A stretch of 64,000 bases of DNA from Patescibacteria group bacterium (GTDB lineage Bacteria; Patescibacteriota; Patescibacteriia; 2-01-FULL-39-33): contig JBAZKF010000001.1 of assembly GCA_041650895.1 (NCBI GenBank), forward strand, positions 509,006 to 573,005. The letters run 5' to 3'. The notes below the pieces were generated by a model. The model had not been told where the DNA came from. It saw only the letters and a list, made by a program, of their open reading frames with translations, and made no database searches. A program made the translations under genes and the position numbers. This document shows positions 10,901 through 22,397 of this stretch, piece after piece. Each line of letters starts with the position of its first letter. Position 1 is the stretch's first letter.

Positions 10901-13900
10901 TCATTCTTCGTTTCCTAGGTCAATCTGAGGAGCGGCGGCAACCGTTACTGTTGTTGATCCATTGCCTATTTGACCCGATCCCGTAGCAGTCAATTCACCG
11001 ATCACCGACATTATCTCCGGATTAGACGGTTCTCCGGCCATGGGATTTGCTGGTTGGATTGTTCCCATACCTTTAGAACCAGCCGTTCCATTTGCTCCCA
11101 AAACGACCGGTGGACCGATAACCCCAGTAACCGACAACGGGGTAGAACTAACAAAAAACGGATCGCTACCGGAAGAGTCAGCTGTTGTTGAGGAGTTATT
11201 TTGTAAAAAAATCGGCGAACTACTGCTTAAAACAATATTCATTTCATCATTAACAACTATATCACCCAAGTCGTCGGTATTATTATCTGAAGTCTCATCA
11301 TCGCTTTTAACCGCCAGAGCATGCCAATTAAATCTCATCTCCTCTGTAAACGGCAGATCGACTGCAACAATAAAGCCGGTGGAGCTTTGCGCTTCTATCC
11401 AATAATCATGCCCGGAAACATTAAGTAAGGGGGTCAGCGTGATTATCGGATCAACATCATAGGGCTTAGCAAAATGAACAGCGGTAGAGGTTGCACCGGC
11501 AGACAACTTAACTGTGCCAGCCGCATCCTTATCCAAATAAATATGATCCTTAAACACCACCTTTGATTCAAATCCTGCTTCGCCGATAACTGTGATGGTA
11601 CCGTAAAAAGTGGCTGAAGAATTTACCGCTAATGAATCCAATACTTCTAAATCATCAAGCGGAGAGTCGTCAACAACTAAGGCCGACTCAGTGCTGGAAG
11701 CGATAATTCCGGATAATTGAGCGGACAGAACCCCAAGTTCTTGCTCCTGACGCTGAGCAACCTGCAATAAATAAAATGGCAGATGGTCGGCGCGATAGCC
11801 CTTGGTTCGGCCGTCATCAAGATATAATTCCGGCAAAGCATCTCTGATTTCTTCGGCGATCAAACCAAAGTCAGTCTGCCCGGTCTGTTTCCAGATAAAC
11901 GATTTGACTTGCAATCCCAATAAAGCGTCGATATTCAAGCTAGTATCAATGATATCATCTTTATACTCTCGAGATGACGGATTAACATTAGTCAAAGTTC
12001 CGTTATTGGAATAAACAGCGCCATTGGTATCTAAGGTGGAAATATTTACGGTTTTAGCTTCAGCATCAAAGGTAACAAAAGGCAGACCGTCATTATAATC
12101 AAGCCATTGATAACTTTTAGCGCTATCAAAAGACAATAACTCAGTTGAGGTAGTAAAATAAATATCCGCAGCCGACGAAAAATCTGAGGCAAAAAAGCTA
12201 ACATGAGCATCACGATTAGTTGAGAAAACTGCGAGATGATCTTTTATACCCACTAAATCCATATCGGATCCAAAAACAGCAGAAGTAGAAGCATGACCGG
12301 AAATCATTGGAACATCCATGAGGCCTTTATTTATATAGAACTTGAGCCCATAATTGCCATCATTTGTGAGTTGGAGCCAATCATTAGGCGATGTAACGGT
12401 TAATTTATGAGTTGGGGTAGTGGTGACAACACCAATGGTCGTAGTAGAATTTAGATTCGTCTCACCGGCAACCTTAAGCCCGCCACTGCCGATTATCACT
12501 CCGAAAAACTTGCCCAAACCGACGGTTATCAAATCCCTTAACACCTGTAAACCGCCAGACACTAACGAGCCAACCCTGGCGGTCGGCGTATCCAATCCCG
12601 GAAGCTTTATAATCACTAACCTATTGGGGCTTACAGACAATGGCAAATAAGCCCTGTTCCCGGAGACTTCCACTCCCCAAGGATTGCCCAAGGTGCTGAT
12701 TGAATCAACAAAATACGGATTATACGGGTCAGAAATGTTAATAATTTTCAAAGCTGCACCCTTATTATCAACAACATAAGCATAATCACCTTGAACCGAT
12801 AAGCCGGTAGATCCTGAAAAATCATTTATATCCTTGTAAAATTCCAACTGAGACCCTCCAACAATTACCGGATTAGTGGAAGAAGAAATGTCAATAATCC
12901 TAAATACCTCGGTAGAAGTGACCCCAATGTCTATAGGCGGTCCAAAGCAGTCATGAGTGGTATAAGCATAACTACCCTTAACAACCACATCCCGGCCTAA
13001 CGGCGGCATATCCAATAAATCACCGCCAACAACAATCGGATTAACCGGATCAGAAATATCAACGATCCTGAATACATTAGTTGAAGTAGCAACATAACTG
13101 ACGGTGTAGGCGTATTTTCCCTGAACATCAATGCCCCGAGTCTCACCGGGGAAATTAGTAACGGGATTACTGATTCTCCTTGGCTTGGAAGGATTAGACA
13201 CATTGATGATTTGCAAACCATCTTCACCGGTTAAGAGACTGGAGTAATAAGCGGTATAAAGCAAACCGTCTATGACTTTTAATTTTCTTAAAGCATAATT
13301 AGCGATATAATCTTCTCCAACCTTTTCCACTGGATTAGTCGGATCGGAAATATCCAAAATAGATAAAGTATTAGTGCTTTGATAAGAGTACTCCTCAAAT
13401 CCGATATAAGCGTATTTCCCATCAATATCAATGCATCTGGCTCCCAAACCGGCACCCGGCCTCAAAGCAAAACTATCATTTACTATAATCGGATTATCAG
13501 GATTGGAAATATCAAAAATTCTTAACTTGTTAGTAGAGGTCGGAGATTGTAATACTACATAGAGATAATCGCCATAAACCATGGAGTTAGATGCCCCGCC
13601 ATGAACTTCTGGCAAAGAAGTAGTAACATAACTTGGAGCTGAATAAAGCAAAGTGGAAGTAGCAATTTTTAGGTTAGAAAGATAAGGCGAAGAAGTCACA
13701 CCGACCAAGCCATTAGTTGCCTGTAAAACTCCGTTTAAACTGCCAATGGTAAGGTCGCCAGAAAGATAAGGCGAAGAAGTCACACCGACCAAGCCATTAG
13801 TAGCTTGCAGGATGCCGTTTAGACTGCCAACGACTAAATTAGTAGTAGTAGTGATTCCCGCTACCTGCAAATCTCCACCAAAGTAATTCTTGCCATTTGT

Positions 13901-16900
13901 AGAGTAAATGGCATAGTTATTGGTTGCTCCCATTGAATCAACGTCGTCAATTCTTAAAGCTGAGTAATCACCTGTAATTGTTCCGCCGTCATTAGTGCTG
14001 ATAATATGCACATTGTCTAATATGCCAGTGAATATTCCGTCATTCTCCAATTCAAAGTTGGCGTTATCAACATAGCCGTTAGTGGATATATTTGAATCAA
14101 CATCAAAAACAGTTCTAAATCTATTAGAATCAGCTACAAGAAACCCAGAATTATTGGCGTAAGTCGTTTCCCAGTTATTACCGTAATAAACTGAAGCATC
14201 ATTAGTTGAAGAAGAGTTAACAGTAACCGAGGAATAAATACTTCCAAGACCAAGACTTAATCCACCGCCAATATCAGCCCAATTATTTTCTTCTACTGTT
14301 CTTACAAAAGCATTTAGACCTCCAAAGATAGAAGCTAATACATTATAAAAAGGAAAGGCACTAATGACTGAACCTGCTCCGACTAACGTCTGGTCGCCTA
14401 CTAATAACTGATTGATAGTGGTAGTGGCCAGAGTGGAAGTTTCCGAAGCTCGGAAACTCTTGGCATAGATACTGGCTGAACTGCTGGCATTGCCATTAAT
14501 TGTTAAGAGAGTGGTGGAAACCGTGCCATAAACATCCAAAGCCGTTTCGGGCAATGATTTACCGATACCCACCTTGCCAGCAAAATAATTTTGAGTGTTG
14601 GAACCTCCCGACCAGATATTGTAATTAAGATTTGATGCTGAAGTGATGCCTTCGGTATAAAAACCATACGCATTCTCTGCTCCATCATTTCCAACATTCC
14701 TTATATTAATACCCTTATAATTTATAGGATGAAAATTTACATCGCTAATAATATCCAAATCAAGTCCGATGGCGTCGGTTACGGTTATTGTCGTATTTGA
14801 GGCATTAATAACATCAAAAAAGTTATTTCTGCCATGAAAGGCAGAAAATTCACTAATCGTCAAAGTCTGGCCACCGTTTGATACCCCCGCCTCTCCATAA
14901 CTGCCCCAGATTTGGTCGACAATTCCAGCTCCGTTGTCATAAACATAATTTCTACTACCAATCAGGCGATTATCGGTTGTTGTTCCGTCATTAATTACTC
15001 CAATTTCAGCTCCGTGAACTCGGTATAAATCACCGTTGAAATCACTGGGTATTCTTGTTGTCATACCCATGGTAGCGACAATTATTGAATCAGTCGGTGT
15101 ATTAAGGTAAGATTCAAATTCAATTTGATGAGAACCGTACTGGTAATAATCCTGGTTGGTAACAACTCTTAAAACCTGATTGCTCCCTTTAAGGGTAGTG
15201 GTTCCATTGACATTCAACCCCCGATCAAAGTTATAATTGGTTGCTCCGGTGATACCAAGTGCCCCAGCATTCGAATTTCCCCAGGGGTCGGTTGAAGTTT
15301 CTTGTATAGTCGCTATGTCATCTAAAATTGAAATCCTATCAGCATACAAATCAGATGTCGTAACTACCCCCACCACCCGTAAATCTCCGCCAAAATAGTT
15401 CTTGCCATTTGTAGAGTAAATGGCATAGTTATTGGTGGCACCCATTAACAGAACATCGTCAATTCTTAATGCCGAGTAATCACCTGTAATTGTTCCGCCG
15501 TCATTAGTATTAATAATATGCACATTGTCTAATCTGCCAGTGAATATTCCGTCATTCTCTAACTCAAAATTGACGTTATCAATATAACCGTTAGTAGATA
15601 TATTGGAGCCTGCATCAAAGAGTGTTTTGAATCTGTTAGAGTCGGCAACCGTAAACCCAGAATTATTGGCGTAAGTCGTTTCCCAGTTATTACCGTAATA
15701 AATTGAACTATCGTTAGTTGAAGAAGAATTGACATTGACTGAAGAGTAAACACTGCCAAGACCGATGCTAGTACCACCCCCATAATCAAGCCAGCTGCTT
15801 TCTTCTATGTTGTTTAATAAACCGGTTATACCGCCAAAAAGCGAAGAAAATAAATTATATAATGCTGAAACACTAAATGCCGAACCTGCTCCGACTAACG
15901 TCTGGTCGCCTGATAACAATCGATTGATGGTAGTAGTAGCCAGAGTAGAAGTGCCGGAAACGGATAATTCCCCGGTCAAGTCCAAACCGGCAAAAGTCGG
16001 GGTATTGGTTGTATCCAGCCATTGGTCAAAAGGGTTCTTGGCTGTAGCCACTAAATAAGAAGCGTCAAAATTGCTTTGGAACCCCGCCCACGTCGTCGTA
16101 GTGTTCCAAAAATACTGTTCGGAAGTGGTAGACCATCTAATTTGCTGAGTCTCCCAATAATCAGCAGATGTAGTGGAAAAAAAGTTGGTTATTGACTTCC
16201 AATAGTCACTGGAACTGGTAGACCAATTGCCGGCTAAAGTGGAAATATCCGACCAATCATTGATATAAACTCCATTCAAACCGGCGACGGTCCCCAAGTA
16301 AGAAGAGTTAGTGGTCGTGGCTGATCCGGTCACCGAAAGATTGCCATTAATGGTAGTAGCGGCTAATTGGGTATTGCCCAAAACACCTAGATTACCGGTA
16401 GTAGTAACGTGATTATCAAAGTAATAGCCGCCGGAGGCGTTTTCAAAAATCAATCTATCAGTGGAAGAATTCAAGTAAATATCAGAAGTAGTGACACTAT
16501 TGGCACTAAAAGTCAGTTTAGGATTCTGGGATATAGAAACATTAATTAGGTTACCACTAGCTAAAGAAATTTTTTCAAAGTCCTTGGCCGCGCCGACACT
16601 GTTATTAGAAACAAAAATCAAATGTTGAGTGGTGGTCTGGTAGCCTATTGTGGCTATACTATCATTATCATAAGAGCCAAATAATATCATGGGACTTTGA
16701 TCGGGCTGAGTATTCCAAATATAGGACGAGTCTTTAAAGCCAAAAACGTCAGTCAGAATAACGTTGGTGCCACTAGCAAAAGCCCCTGACGGGATGGTAT
16801 AACCGTAGATTTTGCCTTGAACAGTATCATTAAAAAAGGAAAAGGTGGTTGTTGCCAGGGTAGTAATACCCTGAGAAGCAAAACTTTCAGTAGAAGTTGC

Positions 16901-17806
16901 CCGAGTTGCGGTCAAATCTGTGATACTGGCAATGGTGGCGACCAAATTAGTGAATAAACCGGAGATAGCATTAAAGACGGAAGTGTAAAAATCAGTCGTG
17001 GTGGCTTGAGTTATAGAAGCGTAAGTAGAAAACAAATTAGTGGAAGTAGCATTTATCGCCAAGGTGGAGGAGGCGCTTAAATTCTTGATATTGGCAGTTG
17101 AAGTAACCGATAAATCGGTAACAGCCAAAGTACCGCCTGTCGCATCACCAAAAACCAAAGTAGAAATATTGGCTATAGTAGCCGTTAAACTACTGATAAT
17201 GGAAGATATGGCGCTAAGAGCCGCGGCGAAAAAATTAGTGCTGGTGGCATTAGTAATTGAGGCGTTGCTGGCAAAAAAATTGGTGGAAGTCAAATTAGTT
17301 ATGGTGGCGCGATCATTAGCCATGTCCGCCCTTAAAAAAGAGGTGGTAGCCAAGCCGTCAAATTCCAAGGTGTTAAGGGCGTTCGGCACAGCGCCCAGAC
17401 GTTTTCTGGGGGTAAGGGTTTCCCCGTCAACGGCTACTTCTAAATATATGTCTTGATTAAAATCCACCGAAGACAAAGAAGTAACCGACCCTAACATAAC
17501 TGAAAACAAACCATTGGCAACCGCCACTTGATCAGCGCCGGTTCGCGTTTCCGTCCAAAGCACCGAAGAACAAGATGAATCGGCACATAATCTAAACACC
17601 ATATCGTAATCACCATCAGCCACTGGACTATCGCTATGGTCAGTTAGCTTGCCTTGATAATTTATTTGCTGATTAAATGAAGCATTGGCTTGGGAGACAA
17701 CAAAAAACAGGGAAAACACAGCAAAACAAGCCATGATAACCCTAATCATCAGGTACTTAAAAGAATTTTGGTGTGTTTTTGTCACCATGCCAAAATGTTT
17801 ACGCAT
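10901..17806 (-). CDS. giant secreted/surface protein (2301 aa) with LVIVD-type beta-propeller repeats and a tail-fibre-like intramolecular chaperone (Peptidase_S74-like) motif
   Basis: N-terminal signal/TM segment (MACFAVFSLFFVVSQANA). Thr/Ser/Asn-rich beta-type sequence with internal duplications. Repeated G[KD]YAY...ID(I)SxPxNP units, and an SSREYKDDI...GLIAEEIRDALPELY motif. Confidence 0.75.
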   Translation of the reverse strand: MRKHFGMVTKTHQNSFKYLMIRVIMACFAVFSLFFVVSQANASFNQQINYQGKLTDHSDSPVADGDYDMVFRLCADSSCSSVLWTETRTGADQVAVANGLFSVMLGSVTSLSSVDFNQDIYLEVAVDGETLTPRKRLGAVPNALNTLEFDGLATTSFLRADMANDRATITNLTSTNFFASNASITNATSTNFFAAALSAISSIISSLTATIANISTLVFGDATGGTLAVTDLSVTSTANIKNLSASSTLAINATSTNLFSTYASITQATTTDFYTSVFNAISGLFTNLVATIASITDLTATRATSTESFASQGITTLATTTFSFFNDTVQGKIYGYTIPSGAFASGTNVILTDVFGFKDSSYIWNTQPDQSPMILFGSYDNDSIATIGYQTTTQHLIFVSNNSVGAAKDFEKISLASGNLINVSISQNPKLTFSANSVTTSDIYLNSSTDRLIFENASGGYYFDNHVTTTGNLGVLGNTQLAATTINGNLSVTGSATTTNSSYLGTVAGLNGVYINDWSDISTLAGNWSTSSSDYWKSITNFFSTTSADYWETQQIRWSTTSEQYFWNTTTTWAGFQSNFDASYLVATAKNPFDQWLDTTNTPTFAGLDLTGELSVSGTSTLATTTINRLLSGDQTLVGAGSAFSVSALYNLFSSLFGGITGLLNNIEESSWLDYGGGTSIGLGSVYSSVNVNSSSTNDSSIYYGNNWETTYANNSGFTVADSNRFKTLFDAGSNISTNGYIDNVNFELENDGIFTGRLDNVHIINTNDGGTITGDYSALRIDDVLLMGATNNYAIYSTNGKNYFGGDLRVVGVVTTSDLYADRISILDDIATIQETSTDPWGNSNAGALGITGATNYNFDRGLNVNGTTTLKGSNQVLRVVTNQDYYQYGSHQIEFESYLNTPTDSIIVATMGMTTRIPSDFNGDLYRVHGAEIGVINDGTTTDNRLIGSRNYVYDNGAGIVDQIWGSYGEAGVSNGGQTLTISEFSAFHGRNNFFDVINASNTTITVTDAIGLDLDIISDVNFHPINYKGINIRNVGNDGAENAYGFYTEGITSASNLNYNIWSGGSNTQNYFAGKVGIGKSLPETALDVYGTVSTTLLTINGNASSSASIYAKSFRASETSTLATTTINQLLVGDQTLVGAGSVISAFPFYNVLASIFGGLNAFVRTVEENNWADIGGGLSLGLGSIYSSVTVNSSSTNDASVYYGNNWETTYANNSGFLVADSNRFRTVFDVDSNISTNGYVDNANFELENDGIFTGILDNVHIISTNDGGTITGDYSALRIDDVDSMGATNNYAIYSTNGKNYFGGDLQVAGITTTTNLVVGSLNGILQATNGLVGVTSSPYLSGDLTIGSLNGVLQATNGLVGVTSSPYLSNLKIATSTLLYSAPSYVTTSLPEVHGGASNSMVYGDYLYVVLQSPTSTNKLRIFDISNPDNPIIVNDSFALRPGAGLGARCIDIDGKYAYIGFEEYSYQSTNTLSILDISDPTNPVEKVGEDYIANYALRKLKVIDGLLYTAYYSSLLTGEDGLQIINVSNPSKPRRISNPVTNFPGETRGIDVQGKYAYTVSYVATSTNVFRIVDISDPVNPIVVGGDLLDMPPLGRDVVVKGSYAYTTHDCFGPPIDIGVTSTEVFRIIDISSSTNPVIVGGSQLEFYKDINDFSGSTGLSVQGDYAYVVDNKGAALKIINISDPYNPYFVDSISTLGNPWGVEVSGNRAYLPLSVSPNRLVIIKLPGLDTPTARVGSLVSGGLQVLRDLITVGLGKFFGVIIGSGGLKVAGETNLNSTTTIGVVTTTPTHKLTVTSPNDWLQLTNDGNYGLKFYINKGLMDVPMISGHASTSAVFGSDMDLVGIKDHLAVFSTNRDAHVSFFASDFSSAADIYFTTSTELLSFDSAKSYQWLDYNDGLPFVTFDAEAKTVNISTLDTNGAVYSNNGTLTNVNPSSREYKDDIIDTSLNIDALLGLQVKSFIWKQTGQTDFGLIAEEIRDALPELYLDDGRTKGYRADHLPFYLLQVAQRQEQELGVLSAQLSGIIASSTESALVVDDSPLDDLEVLDSLAVNSSATFYGTITVIGEAGFESKVVFKDHIYLDKDAAGTVKLSAGATSTAVHFAKPYDVDPIITLTPLLNVSGHDYWIEAQSSTGFIVAVDLPFTEEMRFNWHALAVKSDDETSDNNTDDLGDIVVNDEMNIVLSSSSPIFLQNNSSTTADSSGSDPFFVSSTPLSVTGVIGPPVVLGANGTAGSKGMGTIQPANPMAGEPSNPEIMSVIGELTATGSGQIGNGSTTVTVAAAPQIDLGNEE
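11800..11980 (-). other. Peptidase_S74 / intramolecular chaperone auto-processing-like motif inside the giant protein
   Basis: SSREYKDDIIDT...FGLIAEEIRDALPELY matches the SD(R/K)xLKxNI ... GxIAQEV..xxPExV signature of endosialidase/tail-spike C-terminal chaperone domains. Confidence 0.5.
12560..13650 (-). repeat. LVIVD-like beta-propeller repeat region (protein level)
   Basis: At least six blades: GKYAYIG/ILDISDPTNP, GKYAYTVS/IVDISDPVNP, GSYAYTTHD/IIDISSSTNP, GDYAYVVDN/INISDPYNP, GNRAYLPL. Confidence 0.5.
13676..13838 (-). repeat. in-frame tandem duplication, 2 x ~84 bp (28 aa: IGSLNGvLQATNGLVGVTSSPYLS..)
   Basis: agaaagataaggcgaagaagtcacaccgaccaagccattagt... occurs twice back to back with a few substitutions. 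Confidence 0.7.
13861..14470 (-). repeat. intragenic ~610-bp direct repeat, copy 2
   Basis: About 85-90% nt identity to 15364-15990 by eye. Encodes TSTLATTTINQLLVGDQTLVGAGS...YAIYSTNGKNYFGGDL. Confidence 0.65.
15364..15990 (-). repeat. intragenic ~610-bp direct repeat, copy 1
   Basis: Encodes SVSGTSTLATTTINRLLSGDQTLVGAGS...YAIYSTNGKNYFGGDL. Paralogous to 13861-14470, about 0.9 kb away in the same ORF. Confidence 0.65.
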
Positions 17807-17968: not shown

Positions 17969-20701
17969 TTAGCCGAATAATCCTTCTTTATCTTCTGGTT
18001 CTTTTGACTGCGTCGGCTGATTATCAGCGATCGGCGGAACATTGGTAAATTGACTCTCATTAACCGGCCTTGTTTCTTCTGAGACTTCTTTAATAAGCGT
18101 ATTTTCTGAGGGCACGGCCGATTGATCGGTTTCTTGAGTCTCAACTGCTTCCATTATTTGTTCCTTTCCCTGTTTTAAACCGATATTCTGTTTAACCACG
18201 GCTTCGGCCGCGGTCTGGCCGGTTAAATCGATTATTGGGGTCTTAGCTTGGGCATAGCCGTCCTTGCTGGCAGTCAAATAATACTTATTATTTTCCGCCA
18301 AAAACCCATATTCACCGCGATTATTAGTCACATAGAACTCCAACATACGGCCGTATTCGGGAGAGAAAATCCTAATCACCGCTTTGGCCAAAGATTTCTT
18401 ATTGGTCAAGTCATAAACCCTGCCCCAACTGCGTTTTCCTTTGGGTTTATCGGCTAGACGCTTAAAAATCAAAAGTAGCGATAGATGTAAAGCTAAAATC
18501 AAAGCGGAAAAAATAGAAGGATAAATAAAAGCATAGATAAAGGCCAAAATGGGACCGATTAAACTAAGACTGGCCGCCCAATACCCCTTGCGAAACTTCG
18601 CTATAGCCTGTTTATCTGTTATCGCCAAATTCTTATCCGAATCCAACGGAATATTCGGAGCTATCGTACCCATTGAACCGGCGGGAATATTGATGGTTTC
18701 ACCAAAATACAAGTCCAGATACTGGCCATCTGACTTTTTGCCGGCTAAAATCTCCGAGGGATAAATAAAACCAGACTTTTCAACCCTAATGACGTACTGG
18801 CCTTCCGGAGCAAAGAAAATAAATCTTCCGAATTTATCAGTTACCCGAGAAGTCACTAAGCGGTCAGTCGCCTTGTTGTATAAGCGGACCAGCGCCAAAT
18901 CAACTGGTTTCTTGGTGATAGAATTGAACACTACACCCCAATCCTTACGACGTCGCCGAAACAAGAAAAGCCAAGGTTGGGTAAATAAGAATTGCAAAAT
19001 AGAGAAACTCCAAAAAGGCACAACTAAACTGACATTAATCAAGGCTAAGCCCACGGTTACCTGAGCGATTATTTTGCCCATCGGCGACTGGGCGATATCT
19101 CTGATCGGCGTTAAAAATTCCGCCATTGCCCTTAGTAAAGCGACGCCTGGCAGTTGTTCTATGATTTCTAACGGCCTAACCAAAGCGACTGACACTAACC
19201 AACCAGATACTTCCGCCAACTGAGCTCCAATGGAATCTTGCGCGGAAAATCTTAAATCATAACGGCCGGCCGGTATGGGAGAAAATTGAGCGGCATAAGT
19301 ATTACTGACGGCATCATAGGTTAAAAAATAAACATAATTATTGACGGCCGAGGATAAATCCATCTTGATCCTATCCGTACCCCCGGGAACTTTATCGGCG
19401 GCGATATAAACAGTGATCATCCCACCGTCAGCAGAAACAGTGACCGTACCATCGGCGGAAAAAACACTAATTGACTCATCTTGGCTAAAAATAAAATCGC
19501 CTAAATTGATCTGTGGCGGAATGATTGGCGGAGTCGTCGTCGGTGTGGTGGTCGGAATAATCGGCGGAGTAGTGGTCACAGTGAAGGGCACGCCATTGAT
19601 GCCGACACCACTGGAATAAAAACCAAAAGAATTAAAAGAAAAAATCGAATAGTAATATCTGGTACCGTTAACCAAGCCGGGATTAGCCAGACTGACTCGC
19701 CCGTCCGGAACTGACTCGCCCAAACCGCTGTATATGGCTATACCGGAAGTTAACGAGGGGTAACCCAAGGTAGAGCGACGGATGTACGCGCCGGTAAAAT
19801 CCGGCTCCGCTGGGTTGCGCCAAAATAAAGTCAAGATACTGTCACCCTCAACTATGCTCAAATCAGTCACATTGGATGGTGTGGTTGTCGGAGTGGTAGT
19901 AGGAGAGCTTATGGGCACACCGCTAATACTGGCGCCGGAAGCAAAATTACCGATAGAATCATAAGCAAAAGCAGTATAATAGTATCTCGTGCCATTAATC
20001 AAGCCGGTGTTTAAAAAGCTGATTTCCGGACTGACGGCCGGCTCGCCCCAGCCGTCATAAACCAATACGCCCGAAGCTAAAGCGGGATAATCAACGGTGG
20101 AACGCCTAATAGTGACGCCGGCAAAGTCAGTACTGGTGGGGTTCTGCCAGAATAGGGTTAATCGGCTATCCCCGGCTACCAAACGCAAGCCGTCAACGTT
20201 GGCAATCAAAGCCGGCGTCGAAGCGCTCTTAGTGGTAAAATCATAATCACCCGTCTGAGCCGATCCGCCGGTTGTATTCTGGCAAGCAAGATAGAAATGA
20301 TATAGGGTTGCTTGACTAAGAGAGGTTATGGATGATGAATGGGCTGTTACGGGTGATACCTCAGCGGCTTGACCAGTCAAATAATCGGTGGTGGTACCCC
20401 AATGCAACTGACAATAAGCGGAACTATTAGTCTGCCAAGTAATCGTGGCTCCGCTAATCGTAGTCGTGGCCACTCTAACATCAGAAATTACAAAACCACC
20501 GCCGCAATCAGTGCAGGGAGGCGGGCAATCACTGGGACAATTATCATTAGTTTCTCCGGTTTCGCAAACGCCGTTATTATTACAGACGGAGGCAACGACC
20601 GACACGTCAACGCTAAAACTGTCACTGGAGGTTACAGCCGAAACCGTCAGCGGTAAAAGAGCAAGAAAAAGGATAAAAGCTATTTTTTTAACCGCTGGCA
20701 T
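17969..20701 (-). CDS. large surface/membrane protein (910 aa): FN3-like domains, T/P-rich linker, TM segments interleaved with CarboxypepD_reg-like domains, acidic C-terminal tail
   Basis: Signal peptide MPAVKKIAFILFLALLPLTVSA. Three FN3-like modules (TLFW(Q/R)NP...GTRYYY). TTTPPIIPTTTPTTTPPIIPP linker. Hydrophobic helices, and KFGRFIFFAPEGQYVIRVEKSGF / NNRGEYGFL...YYLTASKDGY beta-sandwich motifs. Confidence 0.7.
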   Translation of the reverse strand: MPAVKKIAFILFLALLPLTVSAVTSSDSFSVDVSVVASVCNNNGVCETGETNDNCPSDCPPPCTDCGGGFVISDVRVATTTISGATITWQTNSSAYCQLHWGTTTDYLTGQAAEVSPVTAHSSSITSLSQATLYHFYLACQNTTGGSAQTGDYDFTTKSASTPALIANVDGLRLVAGDSRLTLFWQNPTSTDFAGVTIRRSTVDYPALASGVLVYDGWGEPAVSPEISFLNTGLINGTRYYYTAFAYDSIGNFASGASISGVPISSPTTTPTTTPSNVTDLSIVEGDSILTLFWRNPAEPDFTGAYIRRSTLGYPSLTSGIAIYSGLGESVPDGRVSLANPGLVNGTRYYYSIFSFNSFGFYSSGVGINGVPFTVTTTPPIIPTTTPTTTPPIIPPQINLGDFIFSQDESISVFSADGTVTVSADGGMITVYIAADKVPGGTDRIKMDLSSAVNNYVYFLTYDAVSNTYAAQFSPIPAGRYDLRFSAQDSIGAQLAEVSGWLVSVALVRPLEIIEQLPGVALLRAMAEFLTPIRDIAQSPMGKIIAQVTVGLALINVSLVVPFWSFSILQFLFTQPWLFLFRRRRKDWGVVFNSITKKPVDLALVRLYNKATDRLVTSRVTDKFGRFIFFAPEGQYVIRVEKSGFIYPSEILAGKKSDGQYLDLYFGETINIPAGSMGTIAPNIPLDSDKNLAITDKQAIAKFRKGYWAASLSLIGPILAFIYAFIYPSIFSALILALHLSLLLIFKRLADKPKGKRSWGRVYDLTNKKSLAKAVIRIFSPEYGRMLEFYVTNNRGEYGFLAENNKYYLTASKDGYAQAKTPIIDLTGQTAAEAVVKQNIGLKQGKEQIMEAVETQETDQSAVPSENTLIKEVSEETRPVNESQFTNVPPIADNQPTQSKEPEDKEGLFG

Positions 20702-20703
20702 AA

Positions 20704-21459
20704 TTAATTGGTATAGGCGGTAAGAGTAACAGTGGCGCTGTAACTGCCTGCCGATTGATTGACGTCAGCGCCAGCCTCGGCACGCAATTTAATGGTTGTG
20801 GCAGTACCGACAACATCAGCCGCCGCTGATTGAGCAATGGTTTTATCGCTGGTTGTCAATTCATCCCAACAGGCATTGGGATTATCCGCTACTCCGCCGA
20901 TATTGCACGTCGCTCCGTCATCCCGATAGGTGGAAGTAATATCTGATCCTTCGGGAGTAAAACCAAAACCCGAAGCGGCAGATGTTACCGACCAGGTATA
21001 ATCAGGATCAGCGCCGGCCTTAACGTAGTCAGCAAAGCTGTTTATCCCAGAAACCAAGGCGGGGGCTGACCCGGCTTTAATCTGCAAAGTATAACCAAGC
21101 GCGCCGCTGGTCCTAACCGTCGCTATAGTGGAGCCATTGGCTATACCGCCTAAAGTTGAATTAATTGAAGGCGAAAGCGAAACGCTGGAATCAGCAACAG
21201 TTAAAGCGACATAAGTTGTTTCATCCAACTGCTGGAAGCCGGCGTTAGTTTGGTAAGTGGTGCTGGTGGAAAGACCGGTACCGATTTCACCGCCGGTTTG
21301 CTCTAAATCATAAGTGGTGGAGGTACTTAATCCGCCGATAAAATTAAGAGAATCACGTTGCAACTCATAATTGGTTGACGACATAACATAAGCCCAAACC
21401 GGCGAAGCGAAAGTAATTAAAAAAACAGCGATAATTAAAAAAAATATTTTATTTTTCAT
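20704..21459 (-). CDS. secreted Thr/Ser-rich protein, possible degenerate WxL-like surface domain
   Basis: Signal peptide MKNKIFFLIIAVFLITFASPVWA. YTWSV and SATVTLTAY segments sit where WxL motifs would be. Overlaps the downstream gene by 4 nt (ATGA). Confidence 0.45.
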   Translation of the reverse strand: MKNKIFFLIIAVFLITFASPVWAYVMSSTNYELQRDSLNFIGGLSTSTTYDLEQTGGEIGTGLSTSTTYQTNAGFQQLDETTYVALTVADSSVSLSPSINSTLGGIANGSTIATVRTSGALGYTLQIKAGSAPALVSGINSFADYVKAGADPDYTWSVTSAASGFGFTPEGSDITSTYRDDGATCNIGGVADNPNACWDELTTSDKTIAQSAAADVVGTATTIKLRAEAGADVNQSAGSYSATVTLTAYTN

Positions 21460-22397
21460 ATCGTTTTACTCTTACTCCGGCGTCGTTTCAGCCAAAAGAT
21501 AGCGCTGATTACCGCAATAACCGCGACAACAATTAGAATCGTAAAAATCCAAGACGGTAAAACCCAGAAACCAGCATAACTCTCGGTATAACTCTGGCCA
21601 TAACCGGGATTCAATAATAATTTGACGCGATACCAGCCGAATTTCGGCTGAGTGAACTCTAATGTCTGCGTTCGTGTCGTTTCCGGCATGACAAAGTAAG
21701 CGGGAATCTTTATTTTCTCTTTAGTCTGTCCTAAAAAATTCAATAAGGATATTTCTCCGGAGGGGTTTAAATAAATATTTCCGGTATTCTTAAAAGAAAA
21801 ACCGACTTTAACCGGGGCGGAGCTATTAAGGTTTTTCTCTGCTTTAAGGCCGGTTAATTCTCCTGATTCCTCAACCGCACCGCTGACTCGGACAAAATAG
21901 AGCGAGGCTAAGCGCGAAACCGGCTTGACCCGTCCGGCGCTATCTTCCGAATCCGCCACAGTAGGGGCGACTACACTGATTAGGACTGCGCCATAAAGCC
22001 CGCCAGGCGGGGCATCAATAGGCACCTTCACTTCTACTGGCAGTTCCATTCGTTCGCCATGCAGCAAGGAAAAGCTCATTACCTCTGGGTGTAAAAAATC
22101 CTTTAGGGAATATTGCCCTTTCTGCGCGCCCAGGAATTCCAAATCAACACCACTTTGAGCGGTAAAATCCTCCACAGCCACAGAAAAATTCAAGGGTTGG
22201 CCAGAACGATTGATGACCGCCACTAAGGTTTTCTCGTTTTGTCCCGGGTTCAGACGTAATTCTTTTTTTCCACCTTCCAGAACAAAATCATTAAAATTTC
22301 CTACGTTGGTTAGCGGAGTGACTGTATAAGCGGTAGAGCAAAGCGGAGCCAAAACCAGCAAACAAAAAGTTGCCAGCCAAATTGTTCGTTTAGGCAT
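21456..22397 (-). CDS. cell-surface protein with C-terminal TM anchor and basic tail (CscA / DUF916-DUF3324-like)
   Basis: Signal peptide, beta-rich ectodomain, then C-terminal LPSWIFTILIVVAVIAVISAIFWLKRRRSKSKTI (a TM helix plus a cationic tail). Confidence 0.5.
   Translation of the reverse strand: MPKRTIWLATFCLLVLAPLCSTAYTVTPLTNVGNFNDFVLEGGKKELRLNPGQNEKTLVAVINRSGQPLNFSVAVEDFTAQSGVDLEFLGAQKGQYSLKDFLHPEVMSFSLLHGERMELPVEVKVPIDAPPGGLYGAVLISVVAPTVADSEDSAGRVKPVSRLASLYFVRVSGAVEESGELTGLKAEKNLNSSAPVKVGFSFKNTGNIYLNPSGEISLLNFLGQTKEKIKIPAYFVMPETTRTQTLEFTQPKFGWYRVKLLLNPGYGQSYTESYAGFWVLPSWIFTILIVVAVIAVISAIFWLKRRRSKSKTI

Follow-up and report, generated by a model that had tools for sequence, protein, structure and literature searches.

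A duplicated module in a giant fibre-like gene of a Patescibacteria genome and the cassette-wise divergence of its syntenic orthologues

The alpha C and Rib proteins of group B Streptococcus and the Vlp and Vsa proteins of Mycoplasma carry tandem, near-identical DNA repeats, the number of which varies between close strains. Duplications of small domains in the phage T4 adhesin gp37 reportedly widen its host range, and T-even tail fibres are said to be mosaics built through conserved junction motifs, in work of 1996 and 1998 attributed to Tetart et al. Here we analyse a giant gene (10901-17806, minus strand; a single open reading frame (ORF) of 2301 amino acids (aa)) in a stretch of 64,000 nucleotides (nt) from the genome of a Patescibacteria group bacterium (assembly GCA_041650895.1, contig JBAZKF010000001.1, positions 509,006 to 573,005), hereafter the window. 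The locus adds a new case to a familiar class, fibre and adhesin genes with an internally duplicated module. We consider it probable (approximately 0.72) that one cassette of the gene (module A, ~205 aa) underwent a lineage-specific in-frame duplication, that the copies now flank an orphan module, B, and that this reflects ordinary modular fibre evolution and not an active length switch.

The giant gene is one uninterrupted frame of 6.9 kb that encodes all of the repeats. A preliminary description of the window had reported a long direct repeat within this ORF, which is real and far beyond chance. Module A copy 1 (A1; aa 614-820, 15347-15967) and copy 2 (A2; aa 1118-1324, 13835-14455), both on the minus strand and delimited by self-BLAST and a repeat search, begin and end at most ~25 nt from the coordinates first given, and the peptide motifs quoted for them were found in both copies. 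Self-BLASTN of the gene paired 13857-14440 with 15369-15952 (81.6% over 587 columns, E = 1e-161), and the repeat search paired 13836-14135 with 15348-15647 (83%, spacing 1512 nt); at the protein level, the two copies align ungapped with an offset of exactly 504 aa, equal to 1512 nt. They do not lie head to tail, and the distance of 0.9 kb first reported corresponds to a spacer of 891 nt occupied by the unrelated module B (aa 821-1117, 14456-15346, minus strand). The long repeats had been called near-identical, a term that does not fit: in register, the copies share 78.5% of nucleotides over 633 nt and 74% of residues at the protein level. Over 594 nt, the copies are 80.3% identical with 117 mismatches, identity at the three codon positions is 0.88, 0.84 and 0.64, and the longest perfect runs are 50, 38, 35, 30 and 25 nt. 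The A copies (78-82% identity, longest run 50 nt) fall short of the ~95% or greater DNA identity expected of contingency-type repeats.

Three loci share the gene order NadE-SHMT-RsmE-DksA-like-LspA-313 aa-251 aa-~910 aa-giant gene-Trx-TrxR-TyrRS, and positional orthology of the giant genes rests on this conserved order on both sides. The encoded proteins differ by whole cassettes. That of the window (P0001, 2301 aa) is arranged as N-X-W-A1-B-A2-T-propeller and onwards, where N is a conserved N-terminal domain, X and W are cassettes and T is a short tandem; the Buchananbacteria protein (P0002, 1564 aa; loci L002/L003, L002 10001-14695) is N-W-X-T-propeller, with 0 copies of A and the order N-W-X versus N-X-W in the window; and the third (P0003, partial, 1364 aa; P0098, complete, 1892 aa; loci L001/L007) is N-W-A-T-propeller-W'-M and onwards, with one A and no B. 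The L001 and L007 genes come from two assemblies that are identical across the shared 4092 nt. An identical arrangement in orthologues had been put forward at the outset as the mark of an ancient, fixed domain duplication; the arrangement proved not to be identical, with 0, 1 or 2 copies of A among species-level relatives. The L001/L007 gene has an internal duplication of its own, W and W' (aa 318-366 and 469-538 versus aa 1191-1305; 81-83% nucleotide identity), in which the W copy precedes module A and the W' copy trails the LVIVD propeller, and cassette duplication therefore recurs within the orthologous group. Judged by these three genes, the middle of the gene, from the conserved N terminus to the propeller, evolves as cassettes are gained, lost, duplicated and reordered between species, with both ends conserved.

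Cassettes A, X and M all begin after the same peptide junction, ...L.V.G-TSTLATTT. No nucleotide-level recombination signal was seen at this TSTLATTT junction, the synonymous sites of which differ, and the junction more resembles a joint in the structure of the protein than a recombination signal in the DNA. The giant gene resembles T4 gp37 and the T-even fibres in the in-frame duplication of a module within a fibre adhesin, in cassettes bounded by conserved junction peptides and in orthologues that differ by cassettes. Unlike gp37, it is cellular, its duplicated unit is ~205 aa long, the copies are split by another module and there is no link to a phenotype; unlike in T-even fibres, its junction is conserved at the protein level only and not at synonymous sites. 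With the size-variable repeat surface proteins it shares intragenic in-frame direct repeats, deletion or expansion of which would alter protein length, whereas its A copies are 80% identical and non-adjacent, and T has only two units, a number conserved across species.

The ENA sample ERZ27249449, one metagenome, is the source of both the 0-copy locus L002 and the 1-copy locus L007, which belong to two related genomes; populations that are related but differ in fibre architecture therefore occur together.

We estimated the age of the duplication from the proportions of synonymous (pS) and non-synonymous (pN) differences (Nei-Gojobori method). Across the whole module, A1 and A2 differ with a pS of 0.43 (dS ~0.64) and a pN of 0.12 (pN/pS ~0.28, dN/dS ~0.2); pS is 0.41 in the head (aa 619-718), 0.46 in the tail (aa 719-812) and 0.31 in the core (aa 734-800). 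Either copy compared with the single A of the closest orthologue (L001) gives a pS of 0.57-0.65, and calibration of the window against L001 with five flanking genes and the conserved N terminus of the giant gene gives 0.52-0.62 (housekeeping genes of the species-level relatives share 79-84% nucleotide identity, those of the window and L001 genomes ~83%). Because pS is 0.43 between the copies versus 0.52-0.62 between the genomes, the common ancestor of A1 and A2 is shown, as far as synonymous divergence orders these events, to be somewhat younger than the split from the closest sequenced relative, yet very old. By the ratios above, both copies are shown to be under purifying selection.

Clustering of synonymous identity between the copies was not significant in either of two tests. 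Among the codons that specify the same amino acid, 44 of 150 differ synonymously and the longest unchanged run is 17 codons (permutation, p = 0.08); the maximum chi-square breakpoint has p = 0.56. A gene-conversion mosaic of A1 and A2 was rejected on these two non-significant results. Because divergence is high and synonymous identity is not significantly clustered, these comparisons show that A1 and A2 have passed a long time without detectable sequence exchange. Recombination drops steeply with sequence divergence, and RecA-independent deletion drops with the distance between repeats; by this established knowledge, RecA-dependent or slippage-type deletion should act poorly on two repeats that are 80% identical and lie 1.5 kb apart.

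The tandem T (aa 1325-1380, 13667-13834, minus strand) consists of two 28-aa units (xGSLNGxLQATNGLVGVTSSPYLS). The 84-bp tandem previously placed at 13676-13838 is real (13676-13830, period 84, 1.8 copies and 88% matches in Tandem Repeats Finder (TRF); 71-nt cores 89% identical in the repeat search), but its description as nearly perfect is true for one 42-nt block only. This block, at the 3' end of both units (13676-13717 and 13760-13801), is 100% identical between them, and the remaining 30 nt of the 72-nt unit core hold 9 mismatches. With cores that are 88-89% identical, T too falls below the ~95% DNA identity of contingency-type repeats. The number of units is exactly two in each of the three syntenic orthologues and also in the distant relative P0006. 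The core identity between units is 0.88 in the window versus 0.62-0.69 in L001 and L002, third-position identity is 0.79 for the window pair versus 0.25-0.58 for every other unit pair, and the identical 3' 42 nt of both units are found in this genome only, not in the orthologues. Compared with their positional orthologues, unit 2 has an identity of 0.82 and unit 1 of only 0.64. This pattern indicates that a gene conversion covering 42 nt or more took place recently in T, most likely from the downstream unit 2 to the upstream unit 1, and intragenic recombination is therefore at work in the giant gene, over a distance of 84 nt.

The initial proposal that the repeats permit in-frame deletion or expansion stands in part. 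Because the repeats are in exact codon register (1512 nt) in one ORF, an A1 × A2 exchange would be in frame, and its predicted deletion product, W-A-T-propeller, is the architecture of the syntenic orthologue P0098/L007; the A copies, however, are not near-identical and T is fixed at two units. An active contingency-type locus, in which frequent A × A or T × T recombination gives in-frame length or antigenic variants within a population, would fit the exact register, a deletion product that exists as a natural orthologue, stretches of as many as 50 nt without a mismatch between the A copies, the recent 42-nt conversion tract in T and the presence of RuvB among the proteins encoded in the window. 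We nevertheless regard such a locus as unlikely, given A copies that differ at ~20% of nucleotides (pS 0.43) with no conversion mosaic and lie 1.5 kb apart rather than in tandem, and given two fixed units of T in all orthologues examined; the repeats of classical size-variable surface proteins are in tandem and near-identical at the DNA level. Diversity-generating retroelements (DGRs) are common in bacteria of the candidate phyla radiation (CPR), and CPR surface proteins are frequent DGR targets. That A1 and A2 are the template and variable repeats of a DGR has almost no probability: mismatches show no adenine bias (27/169 A, 35/107 C, 23/128 G and 32/190 T), transitions exceed transversions, both copies are coding and ~620 nt each, and the window ORFs that were scanned gave no reverse transcriptase, the unbiased mismatch spectrum and the latter result ruling out such a pair. 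An assembly artefact, in which the A copies are alleles of two strains or paralogous genes wrongly joined, is very improbable. The window genome is represented by a single recorded assembly (P0001 and P0095 are from the same contig), and genes of the family fragment in short-read assemblies, the orthologue in an NCBI metagenome-assembled genome (MAG) being split on two contigs (P0003 and P0097) and L005 beginning inside module A. The frame is nonetheless intact over 6.9 kb of a 957,791-bp contig, divergence of ~20% (pS 0.43) is far above that of strain alleles, a unique 891-nt module separates the copies, and no exact match exceeds 50 nt, which is too little to mislead assemblers with longer k-mers. 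The risk of assembly collapse raised in the preliminary description is low at such divergence and with such short exact matches.

The single A of the orthologue bears on a further explanation, namely that the duplication is older than the split of the sequenced relatives, that the single-copy P0098/L007 arose by an A1 × A2 crossover deleting B, and that the low pS between A1 and A2 reflects later partial homogenisation. The A of L007 appears chimeric, with a first half that matches A1 (21:6 aa sites, 42:25 nt sites) and a second half that matches A2 (9:4 aa sites, 29:16 nt sites; Fisher p = 0.006-0.007). This asymmetry is nearly gone at third codon positions (head 17:17, tail 11:19), the majority of informative sites unite A1 and A2 (80 nt sites at which A1 = A2 and the orthologue differs), and in each half A1 and A2 show a lower pS to one another than to the orthologue. 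Compared with the outer halves of A1 and A2, those next to B have diverged further from the orthologue's A, mostly at non-synonymous sites, and faster protein evolution of the B-abutting halves could explain the asymmetry equally well. We prefer this source of the asymmetry; recombination, either as an A1 × A2 deletion in the orthologue lineage or as insertion of an A tail-B-A head segment, is the alternative. Overall, we consider an older duplication rather unlikely. Several points weigh against our preferred account of a lineage-specific duplication without active switching. The chimeric halves of the L007 module are one, as the single-A orthologue could stem from an A1 × A2 crossover in a two-copy ancestor, which would mean that such deletions happen. 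Synonymous distances are near saturation, which makes the relative dating rough. The minimal processing segment of Escherichia coli RecA is ~25 nt, and five tracts of 25-50 nt that are identical between A1 and A2 exceed this length, so that exchange is possible in principle; rare deletion or expansion variants may occur in the population. The AlphaFold2 (AF2) model of module A, built on a four-row alignment, was unusable (mean predicted local distance difference test (pLDDT) score of 36), and trimerisation, autocleavage and surface display of the protein are inferred from family resemblance.

Relatives of modules A and B are few. An exhaustive phmmer search with A1 against 1.84 billion representative proteins returned three at E ≤ 1e-3 (the parent, P0003 and P0094), and the GTDB genome scan returned the L001 contig only. 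A first metagenome scan gave no match; a second scan of metagenomes, with a degenerate pattern, gave one distant locus (L006) with a single A of 47% identity. A word-indexed search with module A alone gave 0 matches and missed even the parent, a sensitivity limit of that method. P0094 (L005 1-3003) is a paralogous fibre with a module A tail, an LVIVD propeller and S74 in another context, upstream of ribonucleotide reductase; its contig, from the same metagenome as L001, opens within module A. Module B had no relative among the 98 collected family proteins, and the database search gave one weak match, P0099, confined to a C-terminal cap motif (GA.N.YGFY...NYFAG.VGIG) that is common to the end of A and P0099. 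In these searches, module B is an orphan apart from the cap motif. Homology of B to A was rejected, as this short motif is all that they have in common and the similarity is not significant.

The remaining architecture, all on the minus strand, is that of a long fibre. A signal peptide or anchor (aa ~15-43, 17678-17806; ...VSQANA/SF, cleavage inferred) was identified by a hydropathy scan, in which the segment ending ANA/SF is the sole strongly hydrophobic N-terminal stretch. It is followed by the conserved N-terminal domain (FNQQINYQGKL...) and TSTNFF-type fibrous repeats (aa 44-310, 16877-17677), which are 86-90% identical to P0002 and P0003; the motif of this domain also occurs in the distant relatives P0004-P0007. 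Cassette X (aa 311-470, 16397-16876) has phmmer matches in P0002 (390-546) and P0083, and the Trp-rich cassette W (aa 471-613, 15968-16396) has the junction ...LSVSG-TSTLATTT as its C-terminal end. Beyond A1, B, A2 and T lies an LVIVD-repeat region, presumably a beta-propeller (aa ~1389-1720, 12647-13642; Pfam PF08309, 94.9 bits versus a cut-off of 20.2, in four stretches), across which self-BLASTP also detected repeats. A Peptidase_S74 intramolecular-chaperone domain (aa 1944-1994, 11825-11977) matched Pfam PF13884 with 26.1 bits versus a cut-off of 22, and in its motif, SSREYKDDI, Ser1944 and Lys1949 have the i / i+5 spacing of the catalytic dyad, a spacing that recurs in 22 motif matches among the collected family proteins. 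The catalytic significance of the Ser/Lys dyad is known from endoNF. An AF2 model of aa 1930-2200, built on a 15-row alignment, predicts for the S74 part short strands and then a long helix with moderate confidence (pLDDT 55-77), and further on a C-terminal beta-sandwich (aa ~2089-2169, 11300-11542; model residues 160-240, pLDDT ~90). Foldseek comparison of the beta-sandwich with the PDB matched tailspike C-terminal domains (Pam1, Sf6 and LKA1), an R-pyocin fibre and H-type lectins (E = 1e-3 to 1e-2), with a template-modelling (TM) score of ~0.55 to small lectins. Approximately 358 aa, this folded domain included, lie downstream of the putative S74 cleavage site. The beta-sandwich starts ~145 aa past the putative autocleavage site and is followed by a Ser/Thr/Pro-rich tail; S74 followed by a folded domain is an unusual order, the S74 chaperone of phage fibres being itself the terminal, discarded part.

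From its predicted features, the giant protein is a secreted protein of phage-fibre-like build. It resembles the S74 fibres and tailspikes of phages (the K1F/endoNF endosialidase and the T5 L-shaped tail fibre) in an S74 match above the cut-off, in the Ser...Lys i / i+5 motif, in being long, beta-rich and modular, and in a C-terminal beta-sandwich that resembles tailspike and pyocin-fibre domains. Unlike these fibres, it is encoded in a conserved chromosomal housekeeping context and has a Sec-type signal peptide and an LVIVD propeller; the ~358 aa that follow its putative cleavage site are a further difference, as the phage chaperone is the terminal part. The 100% identical NCBI protein (P0001) has a later start (2277 aa), is named 'tail fiber domain-containing protein' and belongs to a Patescibacteria MAG on the 957,791-bp contig, for which the protein accession is MFA5124683.1. 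No PHROG family matched the giant protein, two scans of IMG/VR found no relatives of it, and a PDB sequence search with the whole protein matched no chain. The candidate explanation of a prophage tail-fibre gene was ruled out by the housekeeping synteny, together with the lack of PHROG matches and IMG/VR relatives.

The gene is chromosomal and lies amid housekeeping genes, with thioredoxin, TrxR, TyrRS, RsmE and SHMT as neighbours; NAD synthase, RuvB, DnaK/DnaJ, trigger factor, pyruvate kinase and NusA are further products of the window, which has one tRNA gene and 0 other Rfam matches. Promoter and terminator scans gave nothing relevant, promoter-like sites being at chance level. Two ORFs antisense to the giant gene (11040-11405, plus strand, 121 aa; 17040-17456, plus strand, 138 aa) are probably spurious. 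Three genes lie upstream on the same (minus) strand (17969-20701, 20704-21459 and 21456-22397; 910, 251 and 313 aa). The 910-aa protein has CarboxypepD_reg and FN3-like domains, the 251-aa protein (second gene upstream of the giant gene) has a weak match to NCBIfam PamT (42 bits versus a cut-off of 240), and the 313-aa protein has a sub-threshold match to a WxL-interacting peptidoglycan-binding domain. The gene for the 910-aa protein contains a marginal TRF tandem (20439-20478, period 21 bp, 1.9 copies, 78% matches, score 52). Because this three-gene block is kept together with the giant gene in L001, L002 and L007, the four genes may form one surface-appendage operon. Pam pili are a CPR-type pilus with small pilins of immunoglobulin-like (Ig-like) fold that assemble by donor-strand exchange (bioRxiv 10.64898/2026.03.03.709456). 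The giant-gene locus is similar in concerning a CPR surface appendage and in the weak PamT match of the 251-aa neighbour, and differs in that the giant protein is not a pilin. No Pam protein scored above the NCBIfam cut-offs; the giant, 910-aa and 313-aa proteins were without a match, and PamA, PamB, PamC and PamD were not identified.

On the account of a lineage-specific duplication, the fibre would run from a signal peptide and a conserved N-terminal domain through variable beta-rich cassettes, each opening with a G-TSTLATTT-type junction, to the conserved two-unit 28-aa tandem, the LVIVD propeller, the S74 chaperone domain and the tailspike- or lectin-like beta-sandwich. The cassette region would set fibre length and binding specificity, and homologous or illegitimate recombination between cassettes would reshape it on an evolutionary timescale, as in phage tail-fibre mosaicism, rather than as a high-frequency switch within a population. 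More tentatively, and with odds well short of even, the region between the N-terminal domain and T and the propeller could be a dedicated cassette region for host or partner specificity, a cellular counterpart of tail-fibre mosaicism that drives changes of partner in episymbiotic CPR bacteria. Cassette order and number would then be lineage-specific (X-W-A-B-A in the window, W-X in P0002, and W-A with W' and M after the propeller in P0098), and the duplication of A would be one recent step.

Patescibacteria are believed to rely on direct contact with other cells, for which their giant surface proteins are obvious candidates; to our knowledge, next to nothing is known of the evolution of these proteins. 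A single syntenic gene, compared across three related genomes and showing whole-cassette differences (1564, 1892 and 2301 aa) between conserved ends, is a clean case. For practical genomics, the divergence of the repeats is high enough that collapse is no serious risk, although genes of this family still break short-read assemblies. The repeats are probably the trace of an earlier cassette duplication and not a switch in current use, and modules A and B are testable candidates for specificity-determining modules. The locus is of interest mainly because a syntenic CPR fibre gene has diverged cassette by cassette and because it carries the orphan modules A and B.

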